Of a DNA stretch of 34,647 nucleotides, positions 3,141 through 34,647 are shown piece after piece. Made by a program: the position numbers and the translations under genes. Below the pieces are notes generated by a model. It did not search any database. It was not told where the DNA came from and worked only from the letters and a program-made list of their open reading frames with translations. Numbering within the stretch: position 1 is the first letter of the stretch; each line of letters starts with the position of its first letter. The stretch comes from Perkinsus olseni (Eukaryota), in contig JABANN010000371.1 in assembly GCA_013115125.1 (NCBI GenBank), positions 1 to 34,647 of the forward strand, given 5' to 3'.

Positions 3141-3200
3141 GAGAGTCCAGTGGGGGATGTGGTCCCAGGACTCGCCGGTTTTATACTGTTATCACCGCAT

Positions 3201-3473
3201 CTCCCTAATGGTATACTATTGTTATGCTGCCCAGCACCTCCCTAATGGCATACTATCGTTATGCTGCCCAGCACCTCCCTAATGGCATACTATCGTTATG
3301 CTGCCCAGCGCCTCCCTAATGGCATACTATTGTTATGCCGCCCAGCACCTCCCTAATGGTATACTATTGTTATGCTGCCCAGCAGCACCTCCCTAATGGT
3401 ATACTATTGTTATGCTGCCCAGCAGCACCTCCCTAATGGTATACTATTGTTATGCTGCCCAGCACCTCCCTAA
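3201..3473. repeat. 37-bp minisatellite, ~7.3 copies
   Basis: Unit ctccctaatgg(t/c)atactat(t/c)gttatgctgcccagcac starts at 3201, 3238, 3275, 3312, 3349, 3389, 3429 and (partial) 3466. Two units carry an extra cag. A further partial copy lies at ~3483-3503. Confidence 0.95.
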
Positions 3474-3845
3474 GCATTGGGGCCTAATGGCATACTATTG
3501 TTGTACTCAATCCCTTCGAGATCTGGTCGACCGTGATTGCCGATGACATAAACGTGGAGTATATCTTTCATCCTCCAACTACCATGCCTGCCTGATAGCA
3601 GAGCTATAGGACAGGCCGTCTTCTGACACTCCCTTTGTGCCGGGTATATCTTTGACGATGCCGTGCTCCTACCGCCATGAACTCATTCACTCGATCAGGG
3701 CTGGTCATGAAACTGTAATTTTAGCTCCCATCACATATTTTGACATCACTTGAGTCCAATTCTGCCACTCCATGATGAGCCCCATTGGCTTTGGAGGATG
3801 TAAAGGAAGATGCCCACTTCAGTTATTGCCGGCGCTATTATTATT

Positions 3846-8699: not shown

Positions 8700-9600
8700 T
8701 GGGCCATGTGACTCATATGGCCCAGATCCCCCACTGCCAAGAGCTTGATGCGCGACCTCTTTGAGGATGCTGAAGGATGCGCAAGTGCGCTGAGTTACAG
8801 GATGGCATCACGAATTATTTTATGCTTCCGTTTTGGACTGTGATTCGAGTTTGACATCACCACGTATGTTTTGGGTGCCAGAAGGGTTCGTTGTACGTTG
8901 TCAACAATGTTCATACCATCGTGCCAGCAGGAGCTGCGCGGCCGTAAGCGGCCCGTGGCCCAGATGGTCCCCGAGAAGGAGCGTTCTCCGTCGGCAGTCA
9001 GGGCGGGAACGAGCAAGTGCTTACGCTCGCAGAAATACGGGAGGGGAAGTGTGGGCTGTACGTTGCGGCTTCCTCTTGGGCTTGAGCTGTGTGCTACGAC
9101 TCGGTGAATTGCTAGCGTTATCATGGGAGGATCTGACTATCGACACTGAGGCGAAGTCTGGGTTGTGTTTGTATACGCGGAGGCAAGACCGATCAACAGG
9201 GAAGAGGGTCACTCGTATACTTTGGATGCGTCTGCGATGATCTGAGCCCTCGTCTGGCATGTCCCTTCCACCACCTGCTGGGATGGAGGGAAAGTCACAC
9301 AGCGATCGCTAACAATACGAAGATGTTTGACGTTACAAGAAGCGAATTCACCAGCGGGATTGGGCGTGTGGTTAGCACGGCTCTCGGCAACACCGGGCTA
9401 TCGGAGGATTACTCTGGCCACTGTATGAGAAGATCGGCAGCACAGATCTTATTTCATAGCGGAGTGAGTATCGAGCACATCGTCGAGCTAGGTAGGTGGC
9501 GGTCATCGAGTTCCTTGAGCTTGGCTTATCCGAGAGGTGGGGTTTATCAGAAGATCCGCCAAACGGCCTTGACGAACGTGCTGCTACAGGATGTCGGCGT
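8700..9600 (+). pseudogene. Tyrosine recombinase remnant
   Basis: Box I FLLGLSCVLRLGELLALSWEDL. Box II YSGHCMRRSAA...GVSIEHIVELGRWRSSSSLSLAY gives the R...HxxR...W...Y set. Split across frames. Confidence 0.88.
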
Positions 9601-10858
9601 TCCGACGTTCGCACCGAGTAAGGGAGAGAGTGGGAGGAGACCGGATACCGGCACTTCATGGCGCGTCGAGCGTCACTCGGACAGGCGTGAAATAGCTACC
9701 ATCGTGAGCGATTCGGTGGAAATGCTCTACGAGTCGTTTCACGCTGCTCTAGGATGAGTGCACGGTCCCCGGCCTCGTGTTACGCAGTTATGACGGTTCA
9801 GGTATTCCCACCGTCACTCCTGCGTTCCACCTCTCCCAAACTCCCGGGAAGTAAAGCGGCTTTTATAGGAAGATCGGAAGCTCTCTAAAGTAAATTTAAG
9901 TTTCGAAGTAACAGCAAGATGAAGATACAAACGACGGATCGCGACCTGCACCGTGCTAGCCTTTGCCAATACGTTTAAGACGGAGCTTCTACATTCACGA
10001 CGTAGCGGAGTTGTGGAATTTCTCTGTATCACGAGATATTGCAATATCAGTGAAGGTACAGCCATGTAGAATAGGACGAACTCGAGTGAACCCGCCACGC
10101 GCGGGAATGGGAAACTGTCGGGCGAGCGAGCGAACACGGGGTCGTGGAGTTAGTAATGTATTTCTGGGGCTGTGATAACAATGCTGATAACACAGCCCGG
10201 GATGCGTACGGGACTACGATCTGAATCGGTGATGAATACGTTAAGATTCTGTACACTGTACAGGCTTCTTGTCTAACTTTTGATGATGTCCGCTGGCGCC
10301 AAAAATGAGCGTAAATGATACGTGCCCTCGCCCAACTGTCACACGGAACCAGAATCGATTCTGGATTTCAGAATTGGTTTGCTGAGCACCCCCATTAGTA
10401 GTGGGCCATTACTCCATTGTTGCGATTTAAGGAGGTCGGACAGGAAAGGTGACATCCGCTGTTGGGCGTTTACACGCAAGTGTTGAAAGCACTCTTCTAG
10501 ACATAGCGGATGGGAAAATATATATAACTTCTCAACCCAAGGTGAACGGTCATACTTAGAAACACACTCGATCCAGCAGAGTAAAAGGATGAGCTTATTC
10601 TACAATACAAAACAGCATCAACGAAGCACAGAATTGGGAGACAGCGAGGCGAGTCAGTCAGCATGGTGTTTCCCACCCGAAGTAGCTGACGTCGTTCTCT
10701 GAATTCGAGACGCTCTTCCATCATCTCAGTCGGACAGCCTCCTCTTCAGGCATTGATCTTTAGAAGATCGTGAGTACTTCTACTCTCCGCGCTCGAGCAG
10801 AGTTCATAATTTCCTGGCGGTGCCGCTGCTACCGACAAGCAAGCGAAACTAGTACAGT

Positions 10859-12250
10859 TCACCACATGGCAACAGGGGAATGAGTCGACATGATCCTCTG
10901 AGAGATCATCTTCCTCAGCGTTGGACATTCGTAATGCCTGAGCATCGGGATCAATGGTATAAAAGCAATTACACAGAGTACAGAGAAGATGGTAGCGATG
11001 TAGAAGTTGGCTCCGTGACCCCAATGCTCATAGACTGGACCAGCCCAAGGCGTTGCTATCAAATTACCAACACTCAAAACGAAATTGAAGTACCCCGTGA
11101 ACTCTCCACCACGACCAGGCGGCGAGATGGTTGCGACCAGCTGAGGGAGCGTCCCGAATATTAGTGGGCCGGCAAGCGCCACGATGTATTTCACAACAAG
11201 GAGACCCGCGATGCTGTTGAAGCACAGGGGGGCGAAGGCCGACACGACGTAAGACGCACAAGCGCTGAGGGCGATGACGGAGACTCTGATCTTCAAATCG
11301 GTAGCCAGGACCATGTACATCCAGTTGCCGACGAAGACGAGAAGACCATCTCCGATACCAGTCGCACCGGCGAGGAAGGGAGAGAAACCGAACTCGTCTT
11401 TGAGCACTAATGGGAAGTTGAGGAAATCAGTCATGTACATACAATTGGAGAGGAGGGCCAGAGTGAACACCAGGAAATACATGAACTTGTCGCTGGACCG
11501 GCGTCCAGAGGGGAGGGAGGAGTCCTCGGGATTTGGGATGGTCAGCGACTCTGGCTGCGACGGCGATGCTTCTGCGAGATGCTTCCAGCTCATCACAGAA
11601 ACCAACAGCGCCAGGATTGCAACGAAGGCAGGCGGGAACATGGGCCCACACAAACCGACCAGCAGCCCTCCTAGGGGAGGACCAATCGCGAAGGACAACG
11701 CCGGTGCCATGTTCATCCAGGCTAAAGCTCTGATCTGCTCATCACCGTTCTTTGTAAGATCGCAGATGTACGCGCTGGCGACAGGACGACCACCGCCGAG
11801 GAGACCAATCAGAAATCTGACGCTTGCGAAAACCCAGAAGTTCAGAGCCACGGCCTGGAGCGCATAGGCTACCGTAAGGCCGATAATTGAGACCAGGAGG
11901 AGCGGTCGTCTGCCGTATATATCAGAGAGCTTGCCGAACAGAGGAGGAGAGAAAAGCATACCAAATGTATAGAAAAACATGAGAATAGAGTAAGCGGTGC
12001 CTTGGTCAAGATTACCCATGCCATAGAGGCAAGATGGCAGGGAGGGATCGACGAGGATGGGCATGACGTTGGTAAAAATAGAGACCCCGACGAAATCAAT
12101 GAAGACGATGGCGTAGACTAGCAGGAGCTTGCTGGTATGGGACTGTCTCCCTCTACGGCTGCTTGAAGGGGCCGCTGCCTTGGGGATAGTTTCGTGACTG
12201 GAGTCGTAGGGACGGTCGGTGAGGCGCGTGTACGTTTGACGATTCGACAT
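10859..12250 (-). CDS. MFS transporter, DHA1/TetA-like drug:H+ antiporter family, 463 aa, intronless
   Basis: Single ORF with likely start MSNRQ at ATG 12250. About 12 hydrophobic segments, motif A GKLSDIYGRRP, RFLIGLLGG, ASAYICD and motif C GPPLGG. Confidence 0.92.
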   Translation of the reverse strand: MSNRQTYTRLTDRPYDSSHETIPKAAAPSSSRRGRQSHTSKLLLVYAIVFIDFVGVSIFTNVMPILVDPSLPSCLYGMGNLDQGTAYSILMFFYTFGMLFSPPLFGKLSDIYGRRPLLLVSIIGLTVAYALQAVALNFWVFASVRFLIGLLGGGRPVASAYICDLTKNGDEQIRALAWMNMAPALSFAIGPPLGGLLVGLCGPMFPPAFVAILALLVSVMSWKHLAEASPSQPESLTIPNPEDSSLPSGRRSSDKFMYFLVFTLALLSNCMYMTDFLNFPLVLKDEFGFSPFLAGATGIGDGLLVFVGNWMYMVLATDLKIRVSVIALSACASYVVSAFAPLCFNSIAGLLVVKYIVALAGPLIFGTLPQLVATISPPGRGGEFTGYFNFVLSVGNLIATPWAGPVYEHWGHGANFYIATIFSVLCVIAFIPLIPMLRHYECPTLRKMISQRIMSTHSPVAMW

Positions 12251-12659
12251 CGAAATAGGGCGAGTCGTAATGAAACCTGAAGTCGCGAGGCAAACAGATA
12301 GGTCCTTTGAGCGCAGCAGCCACTTCCGCGTTGTGATATCCCACCCTGGTTCGATTCCCGGCCCCTGCGTTTCTAAACCACTCCGGAAGTCCCATAGCTG
12401 ATGGGTCCACTTGCCGAGACCCACCAGATGCACGCCTACTCACTCCTCTGCTATCATGTGAAGTCGATGTTCATAGCCGATACCATGCATCACCAACCTC
12501 AGCCACCACTCCTCGCCCCTCAACCACGTTAACCATCCTACTAAACCATCGCCTAGCCTCTGTCACAATGGGACGCTAGACAGTGTCCCCGGCAGGCTCT
12601 CATGAGAACTCGAACAGTCTGGTGAGCATAAAATGCATGCTTGGGCAAATTCACCACAA

Positions 12660-13445: not shown

Positions 13446-13517
13446 GGTTCTATGGTGTAACGGTTAGCACTCCAGACTCTGAATCTGGCGATCTGGGTTC
13501 AAATCCCGGTAGAACCT
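13446..13517 (+). tRNA. tRNA-Gln (CTG)
   Basis: Full cloverleaf: acceptor ggttcta/tagaacc, anticodon arm ccaga-ctCTGaa-tctgg, T arm ctggg-ttcaaat-cccgg. Confidence 0.96.
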
Positions 13518-13871
13518 ATTATTACCAGTTTACCATCACTCCGACACGCCAAGTGCATCACGAATTCGGCGTGGGTGGTCCACCCCTTCGAAGCGAACAC
13601 ACCGGCCCACGAAGACCCCAATACCGGTACTATGTGCTAGGCATCAGAGCGCCCAAGAGTTACACAGATTGATACAACCGAAGAAGCATACATATCACAA
13701 ACGCATCCAGTTAATGAAAGACAACACCGATAGGCTATCGGCGATAGCCGAGTCTTTCCTCAGTTACAATGTTCTGCTTAGTTATATTGTTACAATGACC
13801 TTGCGACCGGCAGGCTCCGAAACGAACTCGAACAGTCAGGTGAGAAGAAAATGCATGCTTGAGCGAATTGA

Positions 13872-16529
13872 TCAAAATTTCGCACAGTAACGGGTCTCTT
13901 CTGTACCACTAATGCCGTCCTTGACAACAACCCGTCGACAGCACTTCATCAGAAAACTATCGACTCTGACGTTAGGCGGTAGAACCTGACAAGCCATGGC
14001 TGATCCCAATGCCAACGGAGATGCCCCACCTCCCCGATCCACTGACTGAGAGATTCAGCGTCCCAGTACTTCCGCAGGCCTAGCAGCACCTTCAAGCGGG
14101 CTCTCGGCTCAGGCGGCAAAGTCGACCTGAAAGATGCGCTCGAGCCGATCTCCGCGACGCGTCGTATCGCTTACCTATCCACGTGTACCACAACAGGCGG
14201 GGATGCTCGATCATCTATGACGGCCCTGTCTCGAACCATGGAGTAGATCAAGTCCCGAACTTCGCCTTCTTCCCGTGCCTCTTGCTCCCCCCTTTCGCAG
14301 CCAATCGTGTTGGCGACCGAGTGACTGCGTGAAAACGCTAATAGTGAAAACCGATCGGGAAAGTCCTACACGAATTGCTCTTCGAACTCCCTCAATGACA
14401 GACTTCCCCGCTGACAGACGATCTGTGCAGCCCGGGCAGCTCGGATTCTCGCCTCGTCCAACTCTATGTTCGTCCGAGACTTAGCCGTGGCGTCCGTCGC
14501 GATGGACGCCAGTAGCCGTCTCACCACACTGAGCGGCGGCGTCGACCGTCCCTGGAGCCACAGCGGGGAAGCAGCGAATTACTTCCTCCACGTCAAGTTC
14601 ACCCAACGAGCATAACCGATTGAGAGCTCGAAGTAGCGGAAAAAGGACGAAGGAACCAACCTCCGAGGAGCAAGTCGAATCCACAGTCTGCCAGCATTCC
14701 TCGACGTCAACGCTGATGCGACCACCATCTCCCTCGGCGGCGGCATCACAACACTCTGGGAGCACTGACAGTATCTGGAGCCCTCGCTGTAATGCCGAAG
14801 CCCCGAGGGGAGACCCACCAAATCCAAAGTCTCGACGATGTAGCTCTCGTCCATAACGATCAAGTTGCCGCTATTGTCGATGACAATCTTGGACTCCGGA
14901 TCATCAATAAAAGCGTCGACCTACCACATTGGAAACCCCATCGACGCCAGCAAATTCCAAGCAGAGTCCTCAGCAAGAGCGCTCCGAGCATTTAGCCTTC
15001 AGCGGTTCTATGGTGTAACGGTTAGCACTCCAGACTCTGAATCTGGCGATCTGGGTTCAAATCCCGGTAGAACCTATCTAAGAGGTCCAATTATCCAGAG
15101 TTGATTTATCTATCTTTCCAAGACGAATTCGGCCCGGGTGATCCAACCCTTCAAATCGAGGACTCACCCAACAGAGACACCAATGCCGGTGCTCTCTGTA
15201 AGGCGACAGACCTCTACATAGTTACACAAATGATACAACCGAAATTGCTCGCCCCCGCGCCCGCCCCGACCTGTCTTTGCGGCAATGCCGCAAAGCTCTG
15301 GGAGAACCAGCTCGCCAAGGGAACTTTCCTCGAGAGACCCGGTTTTAATAAGCTTCCGCATCGGAGCGTAACAGGGCGCAGCTCAACCTTCGGCAGGGCT
15401 TTCCCCCTTTATCAACGGTGGAGGATGTCCTACTGAGATTGCCAAACTCCAAACTGCTGAAAGCGCATCAACCTTCAACGGTTCTATCATAGAACTTCTA
15501 TGGTGTAACGGTTAGCACTCCAGACTCTGAATCTGGCGATCTGGGTTCAAATCCCGGTAGAACCTTTCCCCAGAGAGAAATTCTATCCACATTACTTCAT
15601 CGTCACTCGCTTGCAGAGAGTACTTCAGCCGCTTCCTATCATTCATTCCCTCCACTTCTCCACATCGGGACTCTAGCGCCGATGCAATCTGCAAGGAATT
15701 GGACTCGCAAATCACAGCTCTCCAGAGTTACCCAAGAATATATTCTCACAGTCACATGCAGTCACGAACAATGAAAAGCTGAAGTCTCCGGCCCCGCTCG
15801 ACTACAGCATCCTGGTTGATCCTGGGCCCGATCGGAGCCAAGACGAAAGTGTCCTGCTGGTTGCATGCTACTTGAACCTTTCCTCCAACCACCCTAACGA
15901 GAGACGAAGAGCTGCCTCCTCCTCCTCCTGCAGCGGCCGAAGATGTGCTTACTGACAGACTAAACGGGCGTTGGAGTTGTTCAGGGACTTCATCTCGAAG
16001 GACTTCCCGCCAATGCACGCCACCGCCGGCTCGTCTGGAGCACCTAGCAGTCGTTGCAACCACCTAATAACTCACCAGAGGTACGGCATTCGACGACTAT
16101 GGGGACCGAAGGAAGCTCCATGAGTCCGCGAGCGCTACCGTGTGCAAGGGAATGCTGTACACCATCCACTGTCTTGACGCATGATTCCTCTTTTGACCGC
16201 CTTCCTTGCTAGCCTAGCTCATTCACTGGCGTTATCATGACATTTGTCACTCGAGAACCACTTTATAAACGACCCTTATAGAGTCGAATAGCACCGTGTA
16301 CGCAGATAGAGCAGGTCGAAGCATGCATTAGACATGAAAAAAGATTCCCTCCCCTTCTACCCTTGATCACTAGTATCCTTTGTGGCTGCTCTCCTTCGAT
16401 CTCCACCCCTTCCGGGAGCTCGAACAACTTCAGCCCACTATCACTATAAGTCTCGGAGTACTTGATAGGCAGACCCCTACCCGCTGATGGTAGATGATGC
16501 AGGAGAGGATGATCCACATGAGACGGCAT
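13872..16529 (-). CDS. DCC1: Sister chromatid cohesion protein DCC1 (Ctf18-RFC subunit) homolog, ~10 exons
   Basis: Manually spliced in frame: 16529-16361, 16043-15953, 15893-15806, 15688-15596, 14920-14819, 14774-14661, 14551-~14372 and three further exons to TGA at 13872. The peptide LKLFELP...LVIKG/APDEPAVACIGGKSFEMKSLNNSNARL...LQASDDE/VDAF...YIVETLDL/IL...LDEARI...LREFEEQF...LPPEPRARLKVLLGLRKYW...VDSFLMKCCR...RYCAKF follows the conserved Dcc1 motif order. Confidence 0.8.
15004..15075 (+). tRNA. tRNA-Gln (CTG), antisense within a DCC1 intron
   Basis: 72 nt identical to 13446-13517. Confidence 0.96.
15480..15565 (+). pseudogene. tRNA-Gln (CTG) with acceptor stem disrupted by a 14-nt insertion
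   Basis: Reads ggttctat-catagaac-ttctat-ggtgtaacgg. The body 15496-15565 is identical to the other copies, but the contiguous 5' strand becomes acttcta, mispairing positions 1-2. Confidence 0.8.
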
Positions 16530-16997
16530 GATAAGAACCAACTGCAAGATAAAAATTTCTGCGCCCCGTCATTGCGCCAGCTACGATGATCCACTACGTT
16601 CTACTATACTGCTGTCCGTTACTAGTGATGCCTGGGTATCGAGTTACCAACTACAGAGGGATATCAACTCTGCACGCATGCACATCATCTACGTGAGGCC
16701 TAGCGGAGCGAAGCAGTCCATCAGGGTGATACTCCGAACCAGTACGTATGCTCAACACCGTCCTCTTTAATGACAACACTCATGAAAATACGTCATGCAG
16801 GGATCGAACCCATGCTCTCCGCCGACACCTGATTCCCTATACTGAGCAGCATATCTTCGAATTCCGCCTGACCAGAAAAGATACTCCAACCTCTGTTCCC
16901 CCGCTTGAGCTTAAGATACTCAAAGATATGCCCCACGAAAGCAAGTATCTCAGCTTCGCCTCACCTCAGCCTCAGACATACTTTGAAAGTATGTCTG

Positions 16998-17271
16998 AGA
17001 AAGTATTACTCAGACTATTACTATTACTATATTAGAAAGTATTAGTANNNNNNNNNNNNNNNNNNNNNNNNNNNNNNNNNNNNNNNNNNNNNNNNNNNNN
17101 NNNNNNNNNNNNNNNNNNNNNNNNNNNNNNNNNNNNNNNNNNNNGTATCACAGAAAGTATTACTCAGACTATTACTATTACTATATTAGAAAGTATTAGT
17201 ATCACAGAAAGTATTACTCAGACTATTACTATTACTATATTAGAAAGTATTAGTATCACAGAAAGTATTAC
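16998..17271. repeat. 54-bp AT-rich tandem repeat spanning assembly gap 17048-17144
   Basis: agaaagtattactcagactattactattactatattagaaagtattagtatcac repeats at 16998, 17152 and 17206. Confidence 0.9.
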
Positions 17272-21400: not shown

Positions 21401-21642
21401 CTATTTCGCATGCCGCGATTGGCGGGTTATGATAGACCGTCCGAGGGCGCGCGAGATTTCTCCCTCGAGTTCCAAAGCATTTAGCCCAATCTGTGTAGCT
21501 AGCAACGCGAGAATTTCAGGCTCATGCCATTCTGAAAACTGATGGGTTCATTATTACATGAATAAAACAGACCTACGCCACCATAGACCGGCCGTTGGGG
21601 CTCCGGGCGATGAGTTTTTATCGGGCTCCGCGTAAGTGTTAG

Positions 21643-22073
21643 TAGCACGTTTTTTTCAGGTTCAACACTCTCAAATTGAAATCCGTGAGAATCGAGTCTC
21701 AATTTTCAATATTACGAATAAGAGACTCGTGTATTATNNNNNNNNNNNNNNNNNNNNNNNNNNNNNNNNNNNNNNNNNNNNNNNNNNNNNNNNNNNNNNN
21801 NNNNNNNNNNNNNNNNNNNNNNNNNNNNNNGTATTATAGATGCATTAGTGAAAAGAATAACTGGCGGGAAAGTATATTAAATAATCTTTCTTGAAATAAT
21901 AGTATTTTAGCACTTTTTTTCAGGTTCAAAACTCTCAAATTGAAATCCGTGAGAATCGAGTCTCAATTTTCAATATTACGAAAAAGAGACTCATGTATTA
22001 TAGATGCATTAGTGAAAAGAATAACTGGCGGGAAAGTATATTAAATAATCTTTCTTGAAATAATAGTATTTTA
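21643..22073. repeat. ~164-bp AT-rich tandem repeat spanning assembly gap 21738-21830
   Basis: gtattatagatgcattagtgaaaag... at 21831 and 21995; ttttttcaggttcaa.actctcaaattgaaatccgtgagaatcgagtctc at ~21651 and ~21915. Confidence 0.88.
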
Positions 22074-22931
22074 TACTTCAGGACCACCGATCGAATCCTG
22101 CGACATAATTCTGTAGAGGGACCCATAGCTCGCTGCACGCATCGCTAGCGTCAACGTCTTGCCGACAGTTGATTCTCGCGAGCTGCTCACATGCCATCGA
22201 CATCTCCATCATCATCACCATCACCATCACCTACTCTCCAGGATGTCGAGGGTACCGGAACAGGGTCTCGTCCAGATGAATATCTGCCACCAAATCGATC
22301 AATCGGGCGAGCGCTAACCCGAGAACAGCAGCTTACCTTCGGAGTTGTCTCACTATTATTTTCACACCGTCACTCTTCCTCAGTTGCTTCATCCGCTTCT
22401 GATCCCCATTGCATAAAATACTCAAACATTGCATTGCCAGCCCTCGACACTCCTGAGGCGAAAACAGGCGCCGATCGGTTGATTGTGTAAATGTAGCACA
22501 AAAAATAATTTTTCGATTTCTCGATTTCTGCTAGCGCTGCTGGGAATATCGTAAAACTTTTATTGATATTAAATTTATTATTATATCAAAATAAGAATAC
22601 ATTAGTATAATTTACATGCATTAGTTTATTCTAAAATGCTCCAGAAAATTATGAGTTCGAACCTGCTTCTCAGAAAATAAAATTCCAGTCACTAGGACTG
22701 GCAAAAGTTTCCAGTCCGAAGCCTGAGCTCCGGGCCGCAGGCATAAACTCAGGGCCTTACGAGACAGGCCGGGTCCCCCCGATTCCTAGCCCCGCGGAAG
22801 GCAAACGAAACGAGCCCAGGTAAGTAGTACGCCACTAAAACTGAAACTGACTGGAAGTTAAACTTCTAAACTAGATCTTCTAGCTTCAGTCTGAAAATAC
22901 GATTAACGTTGTCCTCTGTTACTAAGAAGTC

Positions 22932-23637
22932 TTAGCAAGCACCTTCATCAGCCATAATTCTCGCCGGAACAGGCCGGCGATAGGCCGCTTCCACACAGAG
23001 CGCAGCACCGCGATTCGCCGTAGCCGCCATGGCGACGACCTCAGCCAGGTACCGAGTAAGACGCAGGAACTCCCCATCGCAGTCACACAGCCAATCATCC
23101 GCCGCAACAGGCACAACTGCCTCATCCGCCGGAACGAACGTTATGCCGTATTTCGACTTCTGTTCGGGCACTGAAAATGTATCAACTAGGATCTCGACCG
23201 TATCACCCGAGACTGTGGTGGTACGAGTAGCCGCCCACGACTGGCCGTCGGAGAATTTGAACTCTTGCAGCTCAACGAACTCCCCATTCTTCAATCTCGA
23301 CACCATCTTGATCGGTGGGATGAGACTGGACGGTATACTACAGCCCAACTTGGCCGTCAGCTTCTCAAGCAACTCCTTGAAGTCGACGACTCGCTGCTTC
23401 GCAGTTGACTTCCAGGCTTTCACAGCGGCTAAAGCAATGCATCGGTCCAGTTCGTTGGCCACAGCCACAGCACTGGGCCAGTGCCACTGGCCACTGGCCA
23501 CCAGTAACTGGCGAACAGCGGCTTCATCCTCGACACTGCCGAGGATGGCGGTAGCCCTAGCGGCCCAGAACTCCTTATCGCGCTTCGAGACCACCAGAAG
23601 ACTGAGGCCGGCCACGGACTTTCGTAGAGCTTCCATC
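22932..23637 (-). mobile_element. gag-like ORF of a second YR (DIRS/Ngaro-type) retroelement, no pol downstream
   Basis: Intronless ORF (open frame extends to 23915). It contains IPPIKMVSRLKNGEFVELQEF, resembling the KI..GEFVDL gag motif, and LTRYLAEVVAMAATANRGAALCVEAAYRR, resembling LWSYQMTISMTAARKHVEARCVE of the 6.2-kb gag. Confidence 0.55.
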
Positions 23638-24189
23638 ACCAGTGACCACTGCCTCGAATATCTTGTTGACGATGTCTTGATCACACATGGCGCAGACAAC
23701 AAACTACCACACGGGAACAGCGAAACGCACGGTCCCGACGCCAGGGCTCCCACGCCCTGCAGACCCCTCCGGCACCACATCGAGGAGAGGGCGTGGTCAT
23801 CGGGAAAGGCCACAGGCAAGAGTCGCCACAACTCGGCCAACCAAGCCCGAACTTGAAAAAAGGCCCTTCTGCAAGGCGAGAGAGGAGGATCATTAAAGGC
23901 CCTACCACCACTCAAGGATCACCAGTAACTGTAGCTGGAAACCGGCGCACCGGTAGCACACAACATTCGTCCCTGCCTGCGCGGGCGGTTGTCTCCCCTG
24001 CGTCCACGGAATTTCACATCAGATTGGACATAGCCTCATTTTGCACGTTGCAAACAACGGCAACATGGACTCATCAGTGCAGATGCACCCGTAAAAGCGA
24101 GGAGTTGTGAAGTGATACAACTGCACACTGTAACGCGCGCTCAACGCCAAAACGCGCACTGCACATTACTGCGTTAGAAAAACGCGTTT

Positions 24190-27100
24190 AACACAACAAC
24201 ACGGGTGCAACTCCAGTGTACCCATCAGCGACTAACTGACCGAGCCGCCGGGCAGGATTGCTATTTTCCTCCGCCCCCTCCCCGCTTACTTGCGGTACAA
24301 TCCCCCTGTTCATGTCATCATCATCAGTGAGACTGATCACAGGCGGGCTGTTGATGGTCGGAAGATCCTCTACGGATGAAGGCTGCGGCGGCTGGTTGAC
24401 CATCGGCGGCAAAGCGTCTGAAGATAGACACGACTCATCTACGTACTACTATACTAAGAGCAGTCGGAACCCACCAGGGCGCGCGAGATCACTTCAAGCG
24501 CAGTAAAATAACAACATAAAGCACCATAATGATGACAATTCTCACCTGAGCGTTTCTCGAAGTCGCCATCAGCTGCGATGATACCGCAAAGGAGTGGTAT
24601 AGCTTCGGCAGCGGCCTCTTGCTTCCCGTCTAATCCCACAAACTCGAGCCCTGCCAAAAATACAGGATCACGCCAACTACAGGAAAAACAGAGGAAAAAA
24701 ATACCAAACATAAAATTTTTTCCTCGGTGCATTGAACAAGATCCTCGGAGCCATGCACTGGGATCTAGTTGTGCCAACCACTGACGCACCAATAATCGTT
24801 TGGGTGAGAAATTCCGTCTAAAACGCCGGCTGGCAGGCTACCAAATCAATACTGCCCCCTAGTTTCTCCTACCGCCGATTCCGAAATGCTTGCCTCGCCA
24901 AGCATCATGGGAACTTCTCAAAAGAACCGTCCTCAAAGCAAATAATAGTCTAACGATAGCAAATAATCGTTTGAGTGATAAATTCCGCATAAATCGTCCG
25001 CAATCGACAATTAATATTTTTCAATAATCGTCCTAAGACTTTCTCAAACCGCCGAACCATCTTACCAATCATCAGCGCACTCAAGGACTTCCTCAAAAGA
25101 TCTGATTTTTTACGATAGCTAATCATGTCCCCACTGATCCCTCCAGAACGTAATTCGGAAGCCAATCCTCGTACAAAGCGTAGCAGCACGCTCACACCAC
25201 ACGCCTGAACATGAAATCTTGCAATCTTGCAAACTCTCGCAGTTTCTCAATGACGAAGTAACGAGAATCTTTCTCGCTTCGCTTACATCCGCAAAGGCTC
25301 TCCTCAGCCCCACATCTCCCTCCAGTAGACGGGAGAGTGCCGAAAAGGCAGCATCTTCGAGCCTTGTCGCGTACTCGGTTGAACCTCCGGATACGTCACC
25401 ACCTGCTAATGTTGCCAGTAGTGTTTTGACAAAACCTGGCAGTAGTGCACAGAGTCAGTGCTGAAAGAGCGGAAAATGAATACTCAGCAGAAATTTTCCG
25501 AGATTTTCGGAATTCAACCGAATGAACTACTGAAAATTATGCAAAAAAATATAAAATCTATATTAATGACACAAAATAAGAATGAAGGATAGTAGATTCA
25601 TCAATACTCCATCATCAGCAATTATTGATTTTCATTTTCCGCGTGCCACCTTTCAGCAGTAAAAAATCCATTCCCGAATCGTCTTCGACTTTCGGAAGGA
25701 TTTCGACAAACCAATACTCTCACGAGAAGCCAAGTCTCTCCACCGTTCTTCCCACGTTCTTAGTCAAAATTCCGATTCGTAAAATTTCGGAGTTTTACTC
25801 ACCAAAATTCTCAGCTTCCTCAGCACACTGCTCATCACTGCTAGCAGCCAAAGCTGTCGCGCGCCACGAAATTATTCGAAATTGGACATCTTCGGCAGAA
25901 CCCATCCTGCCGGCTCGCAAGGAGCTGATGTCAAATATCGTCTGAAAAAACAGCAGCGAGGGCTGGTCCGAAGTCACCGTCACCGCGCCACGAAATTCTC
26001 ATGATCGCCGACCTGTGGATTCGTGAGCGGCTTTAGATGGCGGACTCGCTGTTGCGCCAACTCCCTCATTCGGTTGTAATCCGCGGGGCTCTCCACAATC
26101 TTCGTCCAGAATAGTAGCAGCGACAGCAGGCCCGACGAGGCGAGCTGCTGATGAATCTTCGCACTCTGAAGATCTTTATCGAACCGCTAACTGGCGGATT
26201 GAAATTTGCAAAAAGGGAGATCTGTAGTTCTTGTACGAAAACGATTGTCAGGCAGGAAATGCCTGCCGCAGGCATTTCCTGCTGGCCTACTATGTCGATT
26301 CTTGCCAGGAATGCAAATTTTTTTACAAATTTTCCCCATTTTCTCGGTAGATTTTCCAGGCCAAGAAGACCTACGACACCGAGACTAACGTGCCAGTCTG
26401 TGAGAAGACGAGTGGGACAATGTCCGGAAACTCCGATCGTGGAGCCCCTGCTGGTGATTAGCAATCATGAAGCGACAAGAGGAAAGGGGACTCGTCGCGA
26501 CACCCGCTGCCACGTCCGTATAGCGAGAAGCTCATCATGGCGACTCCGATTCAGCTTACCCCATTCTCAATGATCAGCATCACGATGGCCGCCAGGTCAT
26601 TCCGGCATATCTTATATTTTACCGCAGAGAATGATACGAGCTCATTGAGAATGTCAGAGACAACCTAAGGTATGCCGTCCCCCAGGCAGCCCAATGTCGA
26701 CCTACTTCGAAAAAATCCGCGCTGCCACAGGCAGCCGACGCATTAACAGCATCGAGCTCGAGGAAGGTCCCAAGAAGCTCCGTCGCAACTAGGACCACCT
26801 ACAAGGAGCAGCGGAGCATTTTCCGAGACAAGTGCCCCAACACAGATTGCTGTGAGCAGCAGCAGCAGCAGCAGCCCGGCTGGGAACTCCCCTAGTGCTA
26901 CATAGTTTGACGACGGAAAGGGTCGAGGGGAATTATCAAGAGGCGAGATTAGTAGAGGTGAGCTTCCTAGAAGAACTAATATCATCTTCATGAGAATGTC
27001 TTTTTGCAATGAGATAGAGTTGCCGTGTATTCCTGCAGCTAGTATCTCAGGGTGAGCTAGTCTGAGACACTGCAGTCTCATATTGTTGAGTATTGTTGAA

Positions 27101-28956
27101 GACCAACAATCCAGTCCGAGTTGAGGTATAGTGAGTAGCGACAACATTCGCTACGATTCGCTTAGACGGGAGGGGGATGCTTCTCATGGACAATTTTCCA
27201 ATTTTCTTCAGAGTTTTCAGGAACATCAGAGATGTTTTTCGATAGCAAAGGAGCCGCCGAGGTAATACCCAATCATAGTACCCGCTAGGATCTTGTTTTA
27301 AAACCATCATTGCAACGGCGAAGAAGCTCTCGCGAGATTATACACGACTTCTCACCTCGCCCGTCTTATGCAGGTTAACTCTCAGGAGACGAACGACGAG
27401 GATGGGCAGACCGAGATTGACAAGCCTCTCACAGAGCGGACGAAAAACAGCTAAGTCGCGAAACATAAGGAGCATCTTCACGGCCTGAAAACAGCTGGAG
27501 GTGTCAGAAAGCGAAGACCAGCGACACAGCTGCTCACCACAGATGGCTCAGTCTCTCTTCTAAATTCTTCCACGAGCTGATCGAGAACGTCACGCGCCTC
27601 AAAAATAACTCTGAGATTTGCGGTCCCGGTCGCGGCGAGGACGCTTCGAGCGGCTTCTTGCGATACCTCCCTTTCCGCAACTTCCGACTGACCCGTCCTG
27701 AAACCCACCGCGAAGAGCACGGCAATTTCGTGGCGCGTGACGGAAGCCGTGGTGGAGGTGGAATCTCACTTTGCCAGAGCGGTCATAAATTCTGCAATAA
27801 CTGAGCGAAGGTTCTTCTTGCCCTCAGCCACCTCGGGGGTGTCCTGATAATTGAGGAATAAGTTATGTGAAATACACAGGGAGAATTGTGGAGGAACTCA
27901 GCCGAATTTAACTTCATGAAAGAACATGCTTCATGCCGCGTATCCAATACACGCATAAGGCCAATCACCAACGACCCTCAGTGGAAAGACCCGACGAGTT
28001 TCAAATCTAAAATCTCGGGAAATCACAGTTTTCTCTTGGTGAATAATTTCTCGTCCGCTCATTATGCGCCGATCGCATTGTGCATGCGTGCATAGCTGAT
28101 GCTCCGGCCCGCGAATAGAACTAGGTAAAAGACTTTACACTCCTTCTCGCCCCGCGTTGACTATGAGGAACAACGAAGAAGCAACAGAGTCGCAAGAATG
28201 CTCTCGCCAAATTGTTGCGCCGATCCTCTTGTGCATGCGTGCAAGCTGATTCCTCTTCAGAGAGAAAGCTTAGCAAGCAGGAAAACTTTACACTCCTTCT
28301 CGCCTTGCGTTGACGATGAGCAACAGCGAAGAAGCAACAGCTACTCTTACGGAAGCGCGCGGACGATCCCTCGCTCACTTCCCCAGCAGCACTGGCAGTG
28401 GGCAGCACGCAAGTTCCGACAGCTTCGACAAGCCTTGGCAGCTCCCTTCCATATACCATAACATCCGACGCCTTCTCAGAAATGAACGGACGGCAGCAGT
28501 TTCCCAGAAGCTGGAGAGATCAGGGCCACAATTTCGTGGCGCGCGACATTTTCTCAGCGCTCACTTGCCGGATCGCGTTGAGAATTTCGACTTCCCGTCG
28601 ATCGTCAAATAACTTGACCAACCTCTCCAAGAGCTCGGTCAAATCGGACAGTTCCGAATAGCGCCATCCTTCACTTCGACTGAAATGACCGCGCGCCACG
28701 AAATTACCCAAGGCCAGCAACATGACGCGACCCACCTCGAAGCGATGTACTCGGCAACCTCCACATGCCTCTCGAGGAGACCTGCTGTGTGAGGCGCTTC
28801 CAACTGGAAGAAGATGAGATCAAAAGTCGGGTGGTGGCCTCGAACGACGGAGGACATAGGTGGACTGGGCGGCACTGCGGCGAGGGACGTTGCAGTAAGA
28901 ACGAATCTTTGGATGGTTGCGCTCGAAACGAGGCTTCCGCTGAGACGCATCATCAT
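24190..28956 (-). CDS. Large multi-exon hypothetical protein, alpha-helical (HEAT/ARM-like) composition
   Basis: Series of co-oriented exon-like blocks ending at GT donors: LSDLTELLERLVKLFDDRREVEILNAIRQ|gtgagc, LLGNCC...SAAGE|gtgagc, EAENF|gtgagt, FEKRS|gtgaga, IVPQ|gtaagc. Start, end and exon chain are approximate. Confidence 0.5.
28065..28340. repeat. Imperfect ~150-bp tandem duplication
   Basis: gcgccgatc..tgtgcatgcgtgca.agctgat...actttacactccttctcgcc..gcgttgac.atgag.aaca.cgaagaagcaacag occurs twice (~28066 and ~28217). Confidence 0.85.
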
Positions 28957-29199
28957 AGCTCTGAGATTAGAGAGCTCAAATGAATGGAATTGGTTTGCTG
29001 ATACTTGTTATTGATAGTGTTGACCAAGAAGCATCATTCTCTTGCTCCAATCGATGCCTATGCACCCATCACGTATCTTAGGTTTATCATGGGTAAACAC
29101 GAATTCTCCGTCCCTCCGATATTCCAATATTAGATTGAATCAGTAACAGTAACTCAAAAAGCAAGTTAATAAGGAAGCGTGATCACGTCATGGTGAGTG

Positions 29200-31000
29200 A
29201 ACGAAAGTCGAAGTCGCCAGCACGCGGGTCGATACTTTGCATGAGCTCCTCCAAACTCCGTCGAGTCTCCTGCCAATTATCTTCTCGGAGCCTGGGAGAG
29301 CTGAAAGGAGACGGACGCTATAGTCCTCACTATCAGCAAATTCTTCGTTGGTAGCGCGTAAATACCTTGCTCGCTATCCTTTCAATGGCGTAGAGTGATG
29401 ACCCGCGGACGAGCAAGGCCTCCAATTTCCCCGTAAAATTCATTTTTTTTCACCTCGTACCACAGTCCTGTAGGTGAGATACTCATGCCGCTAGCAAGCC
29501 TCCCTTGCTCCGAGAACGACCTACGTTGACTGCCGCGCTGGCGAAGGAAGTCCGTGAGACATGGCCCCGGCGATGATCTCGATCCATCAGTCTCCAGTGA
29601 TGTGTGACATTTTCACTCTAGTTGGTTTTGGTTTTTGCTTTAATATCGCGAGATGATTCAATGGCAATTCACCCAAATCTAATCTGGTCAGATATTTTTA
29701 TGCTCCATACTATGGAGTCCATAGCCTGTGCCAATTTCCCAAAACCATAATTTTCGCCTGGACTGCTAGCTATCATCACACAACTTCCTCAGCACGAGAA
29801 AACCCCCACGAGATGCCATCTCACAATCGGTCATCAATAGCTTCCCACCTCTCAAAATTGGAACTGATGTCGTTTTTCGGAGTACTGCTATCGATCATGA
29901 TCATCTCTTGTGGGCGATGAACAGTCAATGGCCGCTTGAAGTCACAACTCTCATGCAGCACCGATTTCCTGTAAAACAAGGATCAACCTCGGATACGACC
30001 GGGCGGAATACGCTGCTAGCGGAAGCCAATATTTCTTAATGAGGAGGCAGCAGCAGCAGCAGCAGCCACTATGATGCCACATGCAATAATAATGAGGCAG
30101 CCATTGACGATACTGTTGAGCAGCCTGTCCTAATCAGCTCAGCAAGCGAAGACAGAAGAATTGTCGGTAGCCCAGGGGTACGTTGCGCCAGTCATAGGAT
30201 TCACTTGTGTAGCGTCAAAGTTAACGTTTCTTACACAGGAGTTGTCGAGTCGGCTGGCTGGCTTGTCGACCGGGAACGCTCACTGGCACACCTTGCAGGA
30301 GAGTATCTCAACCGTCGCGCGCCACAAAATTACCGCTGCAGTTGCCTCTCCAATATGAAAATCCGATGATGAGCATCTCGCAGTTGTCCCCGCAGTAAAA
30401 GATTCTCTTCCACCACACCTAAGCGGTGACATCGACTTTTCTTTACGCCTAATTTCGCCACGAAATTTCCGTGGCGCGTGACAGATCTTTGCCCAAACCC
30501 ATGGTGGGGACCTCTTAGTGCTGCGTCTGGCCTCCGCTTCCTTGGAGTCCTCTCCTTGCCGGGATCTTCAGCGGACTGGGGCTGTTGAAAACGATAATCT
30601 GAAGGTGTTCCCGGAGATAGAACATACTGTGCTTCTCTCCACCAAATTTCTACCCTTGCCACATCAAAATTCAATTTTCCCATAATTCATCGCTATCTAT
30701 GGCAATCCTTCAGAGAACCGGCAGAATGGTCGCCAAATTTCCGCAATACTTCTCCTACGATCCGCAGCTGCGCACACGGAGCAATCTGCTGTCGTCCGAC
30801 AGCCCGCGTTACTACGAAGATCCCGAGCACTATCATGCGCTCCTTCACCGGGTGACAATCAGCAGCGCAAAGGTCGTTTGAGCCGGTATAACTGATTTCT
30901 CACCCGAGAACTCATCCCCGGCCATCGTATACTACCATTCGCATCGCCACCCTTCATAGTTTCCCTGGTCGCTGAGCGGCTCATCGGCGGTTGGCGATTC
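29200..31000 (+). CDS. Putative multi-exon hypothetical protein, divergent from the 24-29 kb gene
   Basis: Exon-like blocks cag|LPLQYENPMMSISQLSP|gtaaa, cag|IFAQTHGGDLLVLRLAS...DNLK|gt and ...YYEDPEHYHALLHR|gtgac. The model is unresolved. Confidence 0.3.
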
Positions 31001-32034
31001 ACTCTCTCCAAAAAGCTGTCTATAACCCCTTCTGTGTCACACGCAACGCTCTCGTGACGCGCCATAATATTCAAAGAGGATTTACTGCGACCAGCAGGGT
31101 CCAGAAGGGCTTCCACCTAAATAGGACTAACGGAGTCAGAGTGATTGCTGCGGGAATCGGGATGGTGCCCGTAGTTGTATCGGAGAAAACAAGAATAATG
31201 TTCAAGACAGTTTGACTCTAGCCTGGTAGCACAAAATTGAAGATGTCGATCGAATCGTTATTTGGCCTAGTGCGCGTGGACTTCAATTTTCATATTCCAA
31301 TCGCCCTTAGTGTGCCACCGGGACGAGTACCACCTTTTCCCATCTTCTCAAAGACCACACGACATGCCTTTGCAGAGGTGTGAGATCCTCTTTGGAAGGG
31401 GCCTTATCGAGAGGTGTCAGAAAGTGACCTAAGTTGATCGGCCGGTAAACCCACCAGCTGCTTCTGCTGTTGTGTACCAGTGACGCAGCCTTGTTTCAGT
31501 AGGAGAGCATAGTGGTTCCGAGTCTGTTGCAATGAGACTTGCCGTCCGCACTGGTGTGCTCGGAGACGCTGTAACCACAGACTAGCGCGAACCTGCAGAT
31601 CCCAAGTTATATAGCCTAATAGCCAACTTCATCTTGAAATCTGCAGTAATCCAGAATGATATTCTATTAAGTAACATCAAGTATGACTCATCATAGTGTC
31701 AAGGAACGTGACAACGCAGGCTAACGCTTTGATAAAGTCAAGATCATACGGTATGATCTCGGGAGGGTTGGTATGATTCATACCAACCCTCCCGTGTACG
31801 AGCGCAGCGAATTGACTTGCTCGCTGGTATCTTACTTTTGCGTGTCGTTCATGGGCCGACCTCGGCTTCCACCGCCCCAGGAGTCTCTCGACGTCTCTCG
31901 TTAAGGCTTTGAAATCTACATCAAGTTGAACGCTATGAGGTCGTTTAGAGCTGACGATGGTGGGAGATAGGACAGCATGACCGGACATAGACGAGAGGCC
32001 CACAACTACGAGAGCTGTTCTAACCCTCACTGCG

Positions 32035-32084
<50 letters not shown>
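32035..32084. repeat. (ATC)16 microsatellite
   Basis: Perfect trinucleotide run. It produces the artefactual poly-Met ORF start. Confidence 0.97.
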
Positions 32085-32139
32085 GTCTCGCTCAGCAAAG
32101 TTAAAAATCTATTTTGATAGAAAGTGTATGATGAGTTTG

Positions 32140-32495
32140 AGATAAGGTCCTCAACACCTACACCGACAACCACAGGACGGCCTCTGCTTCGAACAGCCGA
32201 TGTGACGACACTCTCCCAGAATTCAGGAAGACACTCCCGCTGCTCGCTCACTGCAACGATCATCACCGGGAGTATAGCGAAGCCAAAAGGGAAAGACTTA
32301 CCGATGTATGCTTTTACAGCTTCAGAATGCGTCACGCGAGCACATCTCGTTCAAGTTGAGCGTTCAAGTTGAACGGTTCAACACAGTTTGAGATCTACTT
32401 GGAAAGTTGTCCTCAGCACCTATACCAACAGCCGACAGGACGGCCTCTGGTTCAAACAGCTGGGATGCTATTATCGCAGAATTCAGGAAGTGACG
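32140..32495. repeat. Degenerate ~260-bp tandem duplication
   Basis: acaggacggcctctg.ttc.aacagc...cagaattcaggaag at ~32172-32230 and ~32436-32490. Confidence 0.7.
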
Positions 32496-33453
32496 TTCTA
32501 TCGTTAAGAGTCGCCACTGCTAGTTTCAGCTACTGTTTCAGTTCAACTGTACCGAGGAGAGTCGTTGCCGCCGCTGATTGGTCGCGGCAGTAGCAGTGAG
32601 AAGGCTGCTGCCGCGGATACTGTATTACTCGCCAAACAGCCACAATGAGGACGATGGGCTTCGTCATGGATAGTAAGCGAGTGCTGTTGAAAGCAGTACC
32701 AGTCGTGTAGTAGCAGACGACCAATCAGCCCGCTTAGCGAAAGCTGTAAAATCGATCGTGCAGCGCAACTTCGCCTGGGCGAGCGGCAGAGCGGCGGTTA
32801 GAATTCGAAGCGGCCTGAGCTAGGGATGCTCAAAGATGTTCCGCTCTGCCCCGTCCATAGCCAACTTCCCACGATCATAGTGGACGTAGCCAATGGTTAC
32901 TAGCCACCACTAGCAGCAACACTACAAGAGGCGCACTTGAACAGCACATCAACAACCATGATTCATACAAAAAATGAATCCCATTCGATCAATGGGATTC
33001 ATTGATCGAACTTCTCGATCAATGAATCCCGATCGAATCGAACTTCTCGTTCCATGCATGGATCTTACGAAGTCGTTCGTCGTGCGTGTCCCTCAAGAAC
33101 TGCAGGAAGCCTTCAACGCCCTTCTTGTAATTGCGTGGGGGAGTGGGCATGACTGCATCGAATAGCTTCTTGCAATGGATGGTGGGCGTGAGGTAAGACA
33201 GAGCCTTCTTCTTGAGATGGGGAACAGATGGTGGAAAGGATTAACAGATTTGAACTCAGCCTCGAAGTCTCTCGTGGGGCCTTCGGCGCTTTGGAAGCCA
33301 CTCGGAGGGTGGTAGTAAATGCTGGTTTTACTCTCACTACGATCCTCACTTGATCCAAATCTTGGATTCCAAAATCTCATAACGCAAGAACCGAGCACGA
33401 ATATACACAATCGAATCAATCACACTCATGCATGGGACACCTATCTTCGACCT

Positions 33454-34291
33454 TCAGCCTTCGGGTGGTACCTGAAGAGGAATGTCAAGTAAAACAAAAC
33501 CATCACCAAGCGAATTTAAAACTATTTCTTCCTCGGCCTTGTCCACTCTCCAGATGTTCATGCTTCCCTTCCCGTCTTCGGCCGCCAGCGTCAGCTCATT
33601 TACCTGAGAAGGAGGAGCAGGCACATCGAAGCAAGGAGAATCCTTACGAGGCGAGTAAACCAACCACCTCCCATCAACCATACCTTTGGAGTGGGTGGCC
33701 AGCCCAGACCTACCTCTCCCACCAGCCCGCCTAGGCTCCCGACCACCGTGCTTTTGGCACAGTTGTCGGGGGCCTGGGCGGGCAGCGGTGGTACAGCCAT
33801 CCACAGTGCATCTCCTCCCTCCGCCGTGGGCCTTGCAGCGATTGCTGCTGCCCACGGCACTCTTCGTGCAGCTTGGGACCTCGCATCGACGGCCACCACC
33901 GTGGCTGATGCAGTGCGAACTACCGTCGCGAGCCTGAAAAAGAAACACCATCTAATCGAAGAAAGGAAGAAAACTAGAAGGCCGTCGAATTATGCTTACC
34001 TGTTTCAGGCATCCCTGCTTAGCACAGAGCTTCCTCTTGTTTGTCGCCTTCGGTCCGCGAGGAACTGGACCGAGGCCAATCTTGACGCGATTTACCTGCA
34101 TAAGTCGCAAATTTAAATGTATCAAGAGATACCTGGGGTTTGGTTGCATCTCGCTCGCCCGTAAGTTCACGGTTTCGCGCCACTTCGGGCGAGCGCGATT
34201 TAGGATGCGCGGATTTGCCCCTTCCGCGTGCGTGCAAGATTCCCGAACTGTATCTTGTAGACTCAGTGGATTCTACTGCTAAGGGACGCAT
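33454..34291 (-). CDS. GGGRRC zinc-finger-repeat protein (WRKY19-like repeats without a WRKY domain)
   Basis: Splicing out introns 34096-34132 and 33934-33999 gives RKLCAKQGCLKQ/ARDGSSHCISHGGGRRCEVPSCTKSAVGSSNRCKAHGGGRRCTVDGCTTAARPGPRQLCQKHGG, three C-x4-C-x10/11-C-x2-H repeats. The 5' end is uncertain and a further 3' intron is possible. Confidence 0.8.
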
Positions 34292-34647
34292 TTTTGATGA
34301 TCCTCCGTGCGAGATCCCTCATGCTCCTACTCCCAGGTGCTATGGCCCTTCAAAGTAGCGCCAGCAAGAGTCAAACTGATGTGCACTTCATTCACCAATC
34401 GCTATTTTGGCAGTTGGGACTGCTTTTCAGTTGTCGTCGATCCCGAGGCAAATTGCTGACTTGGCTGGGCGAATCAGTTCTATAGAGAATGCTGTTAGGG
34501 ACATGTCGGTGAGTTTCCCGGGCGAAACCCTTTAGAATCTTGGGTTGAAGGTAGATGAACCCACGCATGTCACTGTGTCCAGATCCCGAACTCCGATGGA
34601 TCTGGAAGTTAGCGATCGCCCGAGATATCCGAAACGGCTGGCCGACC

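Follow-up and report, generated by a model that had tools for sequence, protein, structure and literature searches.

A repeated 18-nucleotide word in very short predicted introns of two neighboring Perkinsus olseni genes: a candidate recognition site on DNA

Why should one fixed word, with unrelated sequence on either side, recur in both orientations inside two adjacent genes? The question is raised by contig JABANN010000371.1 of Perkinsus olseni (assembly GCA_013115125.1), which was analyzed as a single window of 34,647 nucleotides (nt). A first-pass annotation of this window had described a 14-mer, CGCGCCACGAAATT, that is iterated on both strands and in exons as well as introns between 25860 and 31071, and had interpreted it as a dispersed but region-specific signal. 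The repeated unit proves to be an 18-mer, GTCRCGCGCCACGAAATT, which lies almost exclusively in very short predicted introns and which also occurs at many other places in the genome. It is tentatively read here as a possible recognition site on double-stranded DNA for one sequence-specific protein; RNA pairing, a tiny copied element and templated conversion are considered as rivals.

A stand-alone word at many loci

Exact copies of the 14-mer occur five times in the window, at 25860-25873(+), 25984-25997(+), 27724-27737(-), 28530-28543(-) and 28692-28705(+), exactly as first listed, against 0.00 expected from 100 dinucleotide-preserving shuffles. Allowing up to two mismatches raises the count to eight, against 0.23 expected. 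The additional matches are 30318-30331(+, one mismatch) and two that overlap head-to-head, 30454-30467(+) and 30465-30478(-), with two mismatches each; the first-pass annotation had noticed all of these variants but placed the start of the overlapping pair at 30456 rather than 30454. All eight matches are packed into 4.6 kb, a local clustering beyond chance, and none precedes 25860, in agreement with the earlier observation that the first 25 kb are free of copies. A further variant proposed at 31058-31071 has three mismatches and is at chance level: five matches have exactly three mismatches, and 2.64 ± 1.73 matches are expected at three or fewer.

Although the 14-mer is real, a listing of the flanks indicates that the conserved unit is the 18-mer, with sharp limits at 18 to 20 nt. 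An ungapped scan with the 18-mer at up to three mismatches gives seven matches against 0.03 expected, and misses one copy (copy 2, below) that has a 1-nt insertion in its left part. Nucleotides 1 to 12 of the word form a near-palindrome, and near-palindromy is limited to these 12 nt. The likeness to an E2F site suggested with the first-pass annotation is loose: compared by eye, the word has a GC core that resembles that of E2F, but two other bases stand between the core and the T-run, which directly adjoin in the E2F consensus.

In none of the eight copies does similarity extend beyond the motif into the flanks, and the motif is the sole 9-mer family common to at least three of the 22 modelled introns. 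Contigs of four public sequencing runs were aligned to 22500-34647, including run X6, which is DNA of another strain, and run X8, which represents a divergent lineage, several percent different. One X6 contig spans 22500-32027 at even depth, which indicates that the locus is single-copy. Many further X6 contigs match just ~20 nt and then diverge at the motif edges: 27 before 27724, 12 and 11 behind 27742/27743, 9 behind 25875 and 7 behind 28705. Past these edges, the loose letters agree at 0.36 to 0.5, so that the flanks in these contigs are unrelated. The 27 contigs at a single motif edge are a lower bound on the copies elsewhere, summed contig depth not being taken as copy number. In run X8, 8 and 5 contigs end at motif edges, and the family is thus shared with a lineage several percent different.

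The joints of these contigs have sides of 18 to 35 letters, and those at motif copies have sides of 20 to 23 letters, equivalent to the motif and a few bases. Joints at motif edges are read as other loci with two close motif copies, arranged as direct tandems with 5- to 8-nt spacers, as head-to-head pairs or as tail-to-tail pairs. By chance alone, a genome of tens of Mb would be expected to contain a random 14-mer less than once. The 18-mer is a stand-alone unit at tens of other loci at least, and unrelated flanks at so many loci call for a common reader or a common origin. The earlier description of a dispersed motif on both strands, far beyond chance, therefore stands, but its supposed restriction to this region is not supported, since at least 27 contigs elsewhere in the assembly of another strain carry it.

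Comparison of flanks, named with the first-pass annotation as one way to refute its reading, does not refute it. Similarity stops at the motif edges, and a fragment of a longer dispersed repeat or of a miniature inverted-repeat transposable element is thereby ruled out. Inverted pairs are present in the repeat comparison of the window, none of them flanked by a duplication, and no target-site duplications were found around either inverted pairs or motif introns in the window; the combination of terminal inverted repeats and duplication is absent. A metagenome scan for the 18-mer returned at least 120 loci, all single matches with a median GC of 0.64, and no relatives; among the matches listed, 2 of 120 had a second near-copy, one being an unrelated tandem array, and these loci are read as chance matches in bacterial contigs. 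Three single matches in a viral collection are likewise read as chance. At the gathering threshold, Rfam found only three tRNAs in the window; relaxing the limit to an E value of 1 over 25000-34647 gave no match at or next to the motif. Exact-sequence and topic searches of the literature found no report of the 18-mer; a mention in the P. olseni genome paper or in supplementary files is possible.

Host genes and short-intron placement

Gene models were obtained with tblastn and a spliced-alignment script guided by annotated P. olseni proteins. Gene 1 (22878-28857, minus strand) is a multi-exon, CFAP69-like gene that was found through the open reading frame (ORF) 28523-28819(-), which leads to a pair of annotated P. 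olseni proteins, 826 and 798 amino acids long, each with the ARM-repeat domain of cilia- and flagella-associated protein 69 (CFAP69). Its 14 GT-AG introns down to 24236 are confident. Gene 2 (29848-31988, minus strand), with eight introns, was found through the ORF 30333-30686(-), which leads to a 295-amino-acid DUF4485 protein. This domain is drawn at the N terminus of the human centrosomal protein CEP112 in a published account (PMC11443074). The two genes are adjacent, with a 990-nt spacer between them. A search of the sequences of solved structures with the protein P0036 found nothing below an E value of 0.24.

Introns 24418-24545 and 25205-25286 of gene 1 match spliced contigs of run X10, and the acceptor at 27485 agrees with a third X10 contig. 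For the motif-bearing introns, splicing is predicted from the stops or frameshifts that retention would introduce, from GT-AG boundaries with pyrimidine-rich 3' ends and from gap-free alignment with homologues. Run X7 is a putative RNA run, and its contigs over the gene are unspliced and of low depth; it was not used for expression.

Gene 1 holds copies 1 to 5. Copy 1 (25856-25873, +) is an exact 18-mer within a coding exon and antisense to the gene. Copy 2 (25980-25997, +), an exact 14-mer (25984-25997) with a 1-nt insertion on its left, is antisense in the 71-nt intron 25942-26012. Copies 3 (27724-27741, -; the A variant) and 4 (28530-28547, -) are exact 18-mers in sense orientation, within the 72-nt intron 27698-27769 and the 54-nt intron 28511-28564, respectively. 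Copy 5 (28688-28705, +), which is antisense in the 56-nt intron 28680-28735, has the exact 14-mer and two mismatches in the left part of the 18-mer, and faces copy 4 in inverted orientation from the other side of the 115-nt exon 2. A stretch of 19 nt is identical between copy 1 and the inverted copy 4, as detected in the repeat comparison of the window. In gene 2, copy 6 (30314-30331, +), with one mismatch to the 18-mer, fills most of the 42-nt intron 30292-30333, whose GT donor it adjoins, and is antisense. The head-to-head pair (30454-30482, both strands), with two mismatches in each member relative to the 14-mer, lies in the 93-nt intron 30419-30511. A possible degenerate copy at 27589-27606(+), with 3 of 18 positions mismatched, lies inside a coding exon of gene 1 and is a weak assignment. 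Overall, three of the eight matches are sense and five antisense to transcription (two and three in gene 1, one and two in gene 2).

Exons and introns had both been named as locations of the motif, and both occur; the distribution can now be stated more precisely. Seven of the eight matches with up to two mismatches are found in 6 of the 12 short introns (42 to 93 nt) of these two genes, and one is exonic. The 12 short introns (<100 nt) total 761 nt, or 9.8% of the 7,753-nt span; the 10 longer introns (3,413 nt) and the 990-nt spacer that lies upstream of gene 1 contain no match. Enrichment in short introns, a pattern spotted post hoc in one 34.6-kb window, has a P value per nucleotide of ~6e-7 for the whole span and of ~1.5e-6 within its 5,164 non-coding nt, and per intron (6 of 12 versus 0 of 10) a Fisher P of 0.012. 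The seven intronic matches, three sense and four antisense, are distributed over six introns with GT-AG ends and predicted splicing, and lie 2 to 30 nt after the donor, varying among introns. Motif introns (56, 54, 72, 71, 42 and 93 nt) are no longer than motif-free short introns (53, 83, 82, 54, 49 and 52 nt), and insertion of 18 nt into older introns is therefore unsupported. Among the intron ends compared, no boundary duplications specific to motif introns were found.

The exonic copy provides a different kind of evidence. It is read through as IISWRAT, as first proposed, and lies within an annotated coding exon of gene 1. When the 826-amino-acid protein was searched against 1.84 billion representative proteins, 22 relatives were returned at E values of ≤0.001, among them a pair with 57% identity and several CFAP69-like proteins with ~29%. 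In the alignment, FRIISWRATALAA of the window falls in a stretch that is conserved across CFAP69 homologues. The relatives with 57% identity read LRIILWRAVA, so that IISWRAT of the window corresponds to IILWRAV, and a comparable R-I/M/L-x-x-W pattern is retained in distant CFAP69-like relatives. The window departs from the relatives with 57% identity at two residues, exactly those that complete the 19-nt match. As the surrounding peptide is conserved, the match was not inserted, and the alignment indicates that the exon copy arose by substitution. This stretch would thus appear to have been driven to match the motif at the expense of conserved residues. Substitution fits selection and conversion alike, and origins through protein binding and through templated mutation are both possible. 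Intronization, whereby the motif would have been inserted in an exon and its flanks turned into intron, is rejected, as there are no gaps relative to homologues at the four junctions of the motif introns in gene 1.

Gene 1 has further features of its own. The model of its 3' part (~22878-24211) is less sure, with several poorly supported short introns, and contains an in-frame stop ~20 codons before the end, where an annotated relative has a tyrosine; this may reflect a haplotype difference, a sequencing error or an error in the model. A second exact 14-mer, ATCTCGCGCGCCCT, which has the TCGCGCGCC core in common with the main motif, occurs twice in the window, at 21444-21457(-) and 24476-24489(-), against 0.01 expected, and the latter copy is inside the 128-nt intron 24418-24545. 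The 535-nt intron 27844-28378 contains a tandem duplication (28058-28186 and 28219-28340) with a unit of ~125 to 150 nt that is 90% identical over 59 nt. Many X6, X8 and X10 contigs break at 28058, 28097/28100 and 28186, and the unit, which has no Rfam match, recurs at many other loci. It contains TGTGCATGCGTGCA, which matches 16663-16684 in inverted orientation.

Candidate explanations for the word

The explanation preferred here, albeit tentatively, is that the 18-mer is a recognition site on DNA. One sequence-specific protein would read the word on double-stranded DNA, and a cluster of many sites, nearly all of them in very short introns, would lie within the transcribed bodies of two neighboring minus-strand genes. 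The bound protein would act locally on the CFAP69-like and DUF4485/CEP112-like genes. It might co-regulate a set of cilium/centrosome genes or, alternatively, it might form a co-transcriptional roadblock that slows the polymerase and thereby tunes splicing of the adjoining tiny introns. The use of the word in sense as well as antisense orientation to transcription is consistent with a signal read on DNA, not RNA, and the head-to-head pair, together with tandem and paired copies elsewhere, is laid out as is typical of arrays bound by proteins. A single protein is suggested by the recurrence of one fixed word at many loci, by its near-palindromic left half and by the pull on a conserved coding stretch, and the putative cilium/centrosome character of both motif-bearing genes hints at an element of a gene set.

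Several points weigh against recognition on DNA. The gene-class argument is based on two genes, no other ORF of the window being nameable, and both the reading by a protein and the effect of its binding are inferred only. Near-perfect identity over 18 nt exceeds that of most binding sites and would also be given by recent copying. Absence upstream of gene 1 is not the behavior of a plain promoter or enhancer site, and the confinement of all seven non-coding matches to short introns is an odd placement for a transcription factor site. As there are none in the spacer or in long introns, the binding-site reading needs the extra assumption that a site must adjoin exons. Moreover, the motif introns are themselves predicted from frame, GT-AG ends and homologue alignment rather than from RNA.

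A more elaborate proposal would combine these elements and, taken as a whole, is unlikely. The 18-mer would then be an intron-resident tag of Perkinsus, belonging to an undescribed class, in which one fixed word in either orientation marks very short introns of particular genes and is even imposed on a conserved coding stretch through amino-acid-changing substitutions. A dedicated factor would read the tag as DNA and couple transcription to splicing or retention of tiny introns, and could restrain cilium/centrosome transcripts until the flagellated stage is reached. In another version, the tag would be spread and maintained by a new process that copies short patches.

Pairing at the level of RNA, which is improbable as the main explanation, would involve sense and antisense intron copies that form duplexes of 16 to 21 bp in one pre-mRNA. 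Exons might be looped out or splice sites hidden, leading to intron retention, exon skipping or back-splicing; in a variant of this explanation, copies on different transcripts would pair and feed a double-stranded-RNA pathway. Pairing would explain residence in introns, as these belong to the transcript until they are spliced out, and the presence of both orientations in each gene. The inverted copies 5 and 4 in the introns flanking exon 2 have 16 nt that are 100% complementary, and a predicted fold of 28500-28745 pairs them as a long stem that encloses the exon, at -103.1 kcal/mol (z = -4.05), with none of 200 shuffles as good. However, such a stem follows by construction from an inverted repeat. 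The head-to-head pair in intron 6 of gene 2 is predicted to form a local 9-bp hairpin if transcribed, but single motif introns do not have unusual structure (z scores of -1.5 to +1.35 in six of six, against -1.72 to -0.26 in the six motif-free short introns, neither set being distinctive). Furthermore, pairing needs mere complementarity, not one sequence common to at least 27 other loci, and it leaves the direct tandem arrays elsewhere unexplained.

Copying without function is given similarly little weight. The word would be the conserved core of a tiny sequence, mobile or captured, that survives where it is spliced out or harmless, with parallels in solo terminal repeats, bacterial REP/REPIN units and introner-type insertions. 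Exact identity over 18 to 20 nt, with sharp edges on both sides and at many loci, is what such copying would produce, as are both orientations and the arrangement of copies as inverted pairs or in small arrays. The introns fit the homologues precisely, the four gene 1 junctions being free of gaps, and intron gain is compatible with this. Nevertheless, flanks within the introns are unrelated, no target-site duplication is specific to motif introns, and contigs from elsewhere end at motif edges rather than at intron edges, such that copies of whole introns are not seen. Motif introns do not have the excess length that insertion would leave, and in the exon the copy came about through substitutions within a conserved peptide. 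Neutral insertions would also be expected in long introns and in the spacer, both of which are free of copies.

Templated short-patch conversion without selection, by which repair or replication would copy ~18 to 20 nt of another copy or array into partly similar sequence and so perfect the match, is the least probable of the explanations named: it would account for an exon copy whose differences from homologues are all substitutions, located where identity requires them, for the length neutrality of motif introns, for eight copies clustered in 4.6 kb and for the 19 identical nt of the inverted copies 1 and 4, but not for intron copies that have no flanking similarity to guide it, for the restriction to short introns or for at least 27 copies on unrelated contigs. 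To our knowledge, no short-patch conversion process of this kind is known in this group of organisms. Explanations other than those considered here retain a small share of the probability, comparable to that of RNA pairing.

The remainder of the window and relation to known systems

Other features of the window lie outside the motif cluster. Summed contig depth of run X7 reaches ~10,000 at 32220-33029, especially at 32553-32668, against 4 to 50 in most bins, and exceeds 200 at the repeat in 27765-28574. Adaptor letters in X7 stand directly before 32552/32553/32572 and behind 32668/32670, and these positions and the depth indicate a fragment of ~116 nt that is very abundant in the run. No RNA family in Rfam matched 32220-33029. 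An inverted pair of CCAAT-type boxes is located at 32573-32584 and 32718-32729.

Three tRNA-Gln(CTG) genes with partly duplicated flanks lie within 2.1 kb at 13446-15566, and a tandem array of ~8 copies with a period of 37 to 40 nt occupies 3164-3506. N runs of 97 and 93 letters (17048-17144 and 21738-21830) are inside AT-rich repeat blocks. A Pfam scan of 88 window ORFs gave hits in three only (MFS, a sub-threshold tyrosine-recombinase-like match and Zf_WRKY19). The long ORF 10859-12436(-) is 99% identical to a P. olseni MFS protein and contains no motif copy. The ORF 9137-9754(+) has a weak phage-integrase (tyrosine recombinase) match, at 20.9 bits against a cut-off of 27.1, and may be what is left of a mobile element of recombinase type. 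Across 12000-34647, GC skew is negative in 20 of 22 1-kb bins and AT skew is positive in 19 of 22; together with the minus-strand orientation of genes 1 and 2 and of the MFS ORF, this suggests an array of genes in the same direction.

Clusters of multi-copy binding sites are familiar from insulator and zinc-finger array sites and from pairing-center or dosage-compensation motifs of nematodes. The Perkinsus word resembles these in being short and exact and in occurring on both strands, in clusters and arrays, with unrelated flanks and at many loci, introns included. The Perkinsus sites differ in that they avoid the spacer and long introns and sit in introns of 42 to 93 nt, a placement not known from those systems, and their binding protein is hypothetical.

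Introners of Amoebophrya, an alveolate and dinoflagellate relative, are alike in sequence over the full length of the intron, with inverted repeats at intron ends and 3- to 5-nt direct repeats at the boundaries (PMC7789003). As in the introners so described, the Perkinsus repeat is found in short introns in either orientation, and inverted repeats can fold; in contrast, the Perkinsus introns share 18 nt only, at variable positions, and have no boundary repeats. Identity with introners is rejected, as sequence is not shared over whole introns and contigs from outside the locus end at motif edges.

Uptake sequences, HIP1 and REP/REPIN units of bacteria are likewise over-represented words that occur on both strands, as singletons, inverted pairs or arrays, and sometimes within coding sequence. 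The word described here differs from them in belonging to a eukaryote with spliceosomal introns, in being found on at least 27 other contigs rather than in thousands of copies, and in having palindromy in its first 12 nt only. In animals, inverted intronic repeats that flank exons, which are long transposon copies, promote exon looping and circular RNA. Copies 5 and 4, on either side of exon 2 and with predicted pairing, recall this arrangement; however, any complementary pair suffices there, whereas here one fixed 18-mer recurs at many loci. A dispersed cis-acting word is of a known kind, and residence in short introns is its unusual feature.

Little is understood of gene regulation in perkinsids and their dinoflagellate relatives, where few cis-elements are known. 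A fixed word of 18 nt that marks short introns of particular genes, is repeated at many loci and overrides conserved exon residues would provide a concrete handle on a regulator, or on a process of sequence copying, in this lineage. Even if it were merely a copied fragment without function, it would still be a useful marker of an unusual mutational process. In addition, the finding bears on the recognition and evolution of very short introns.

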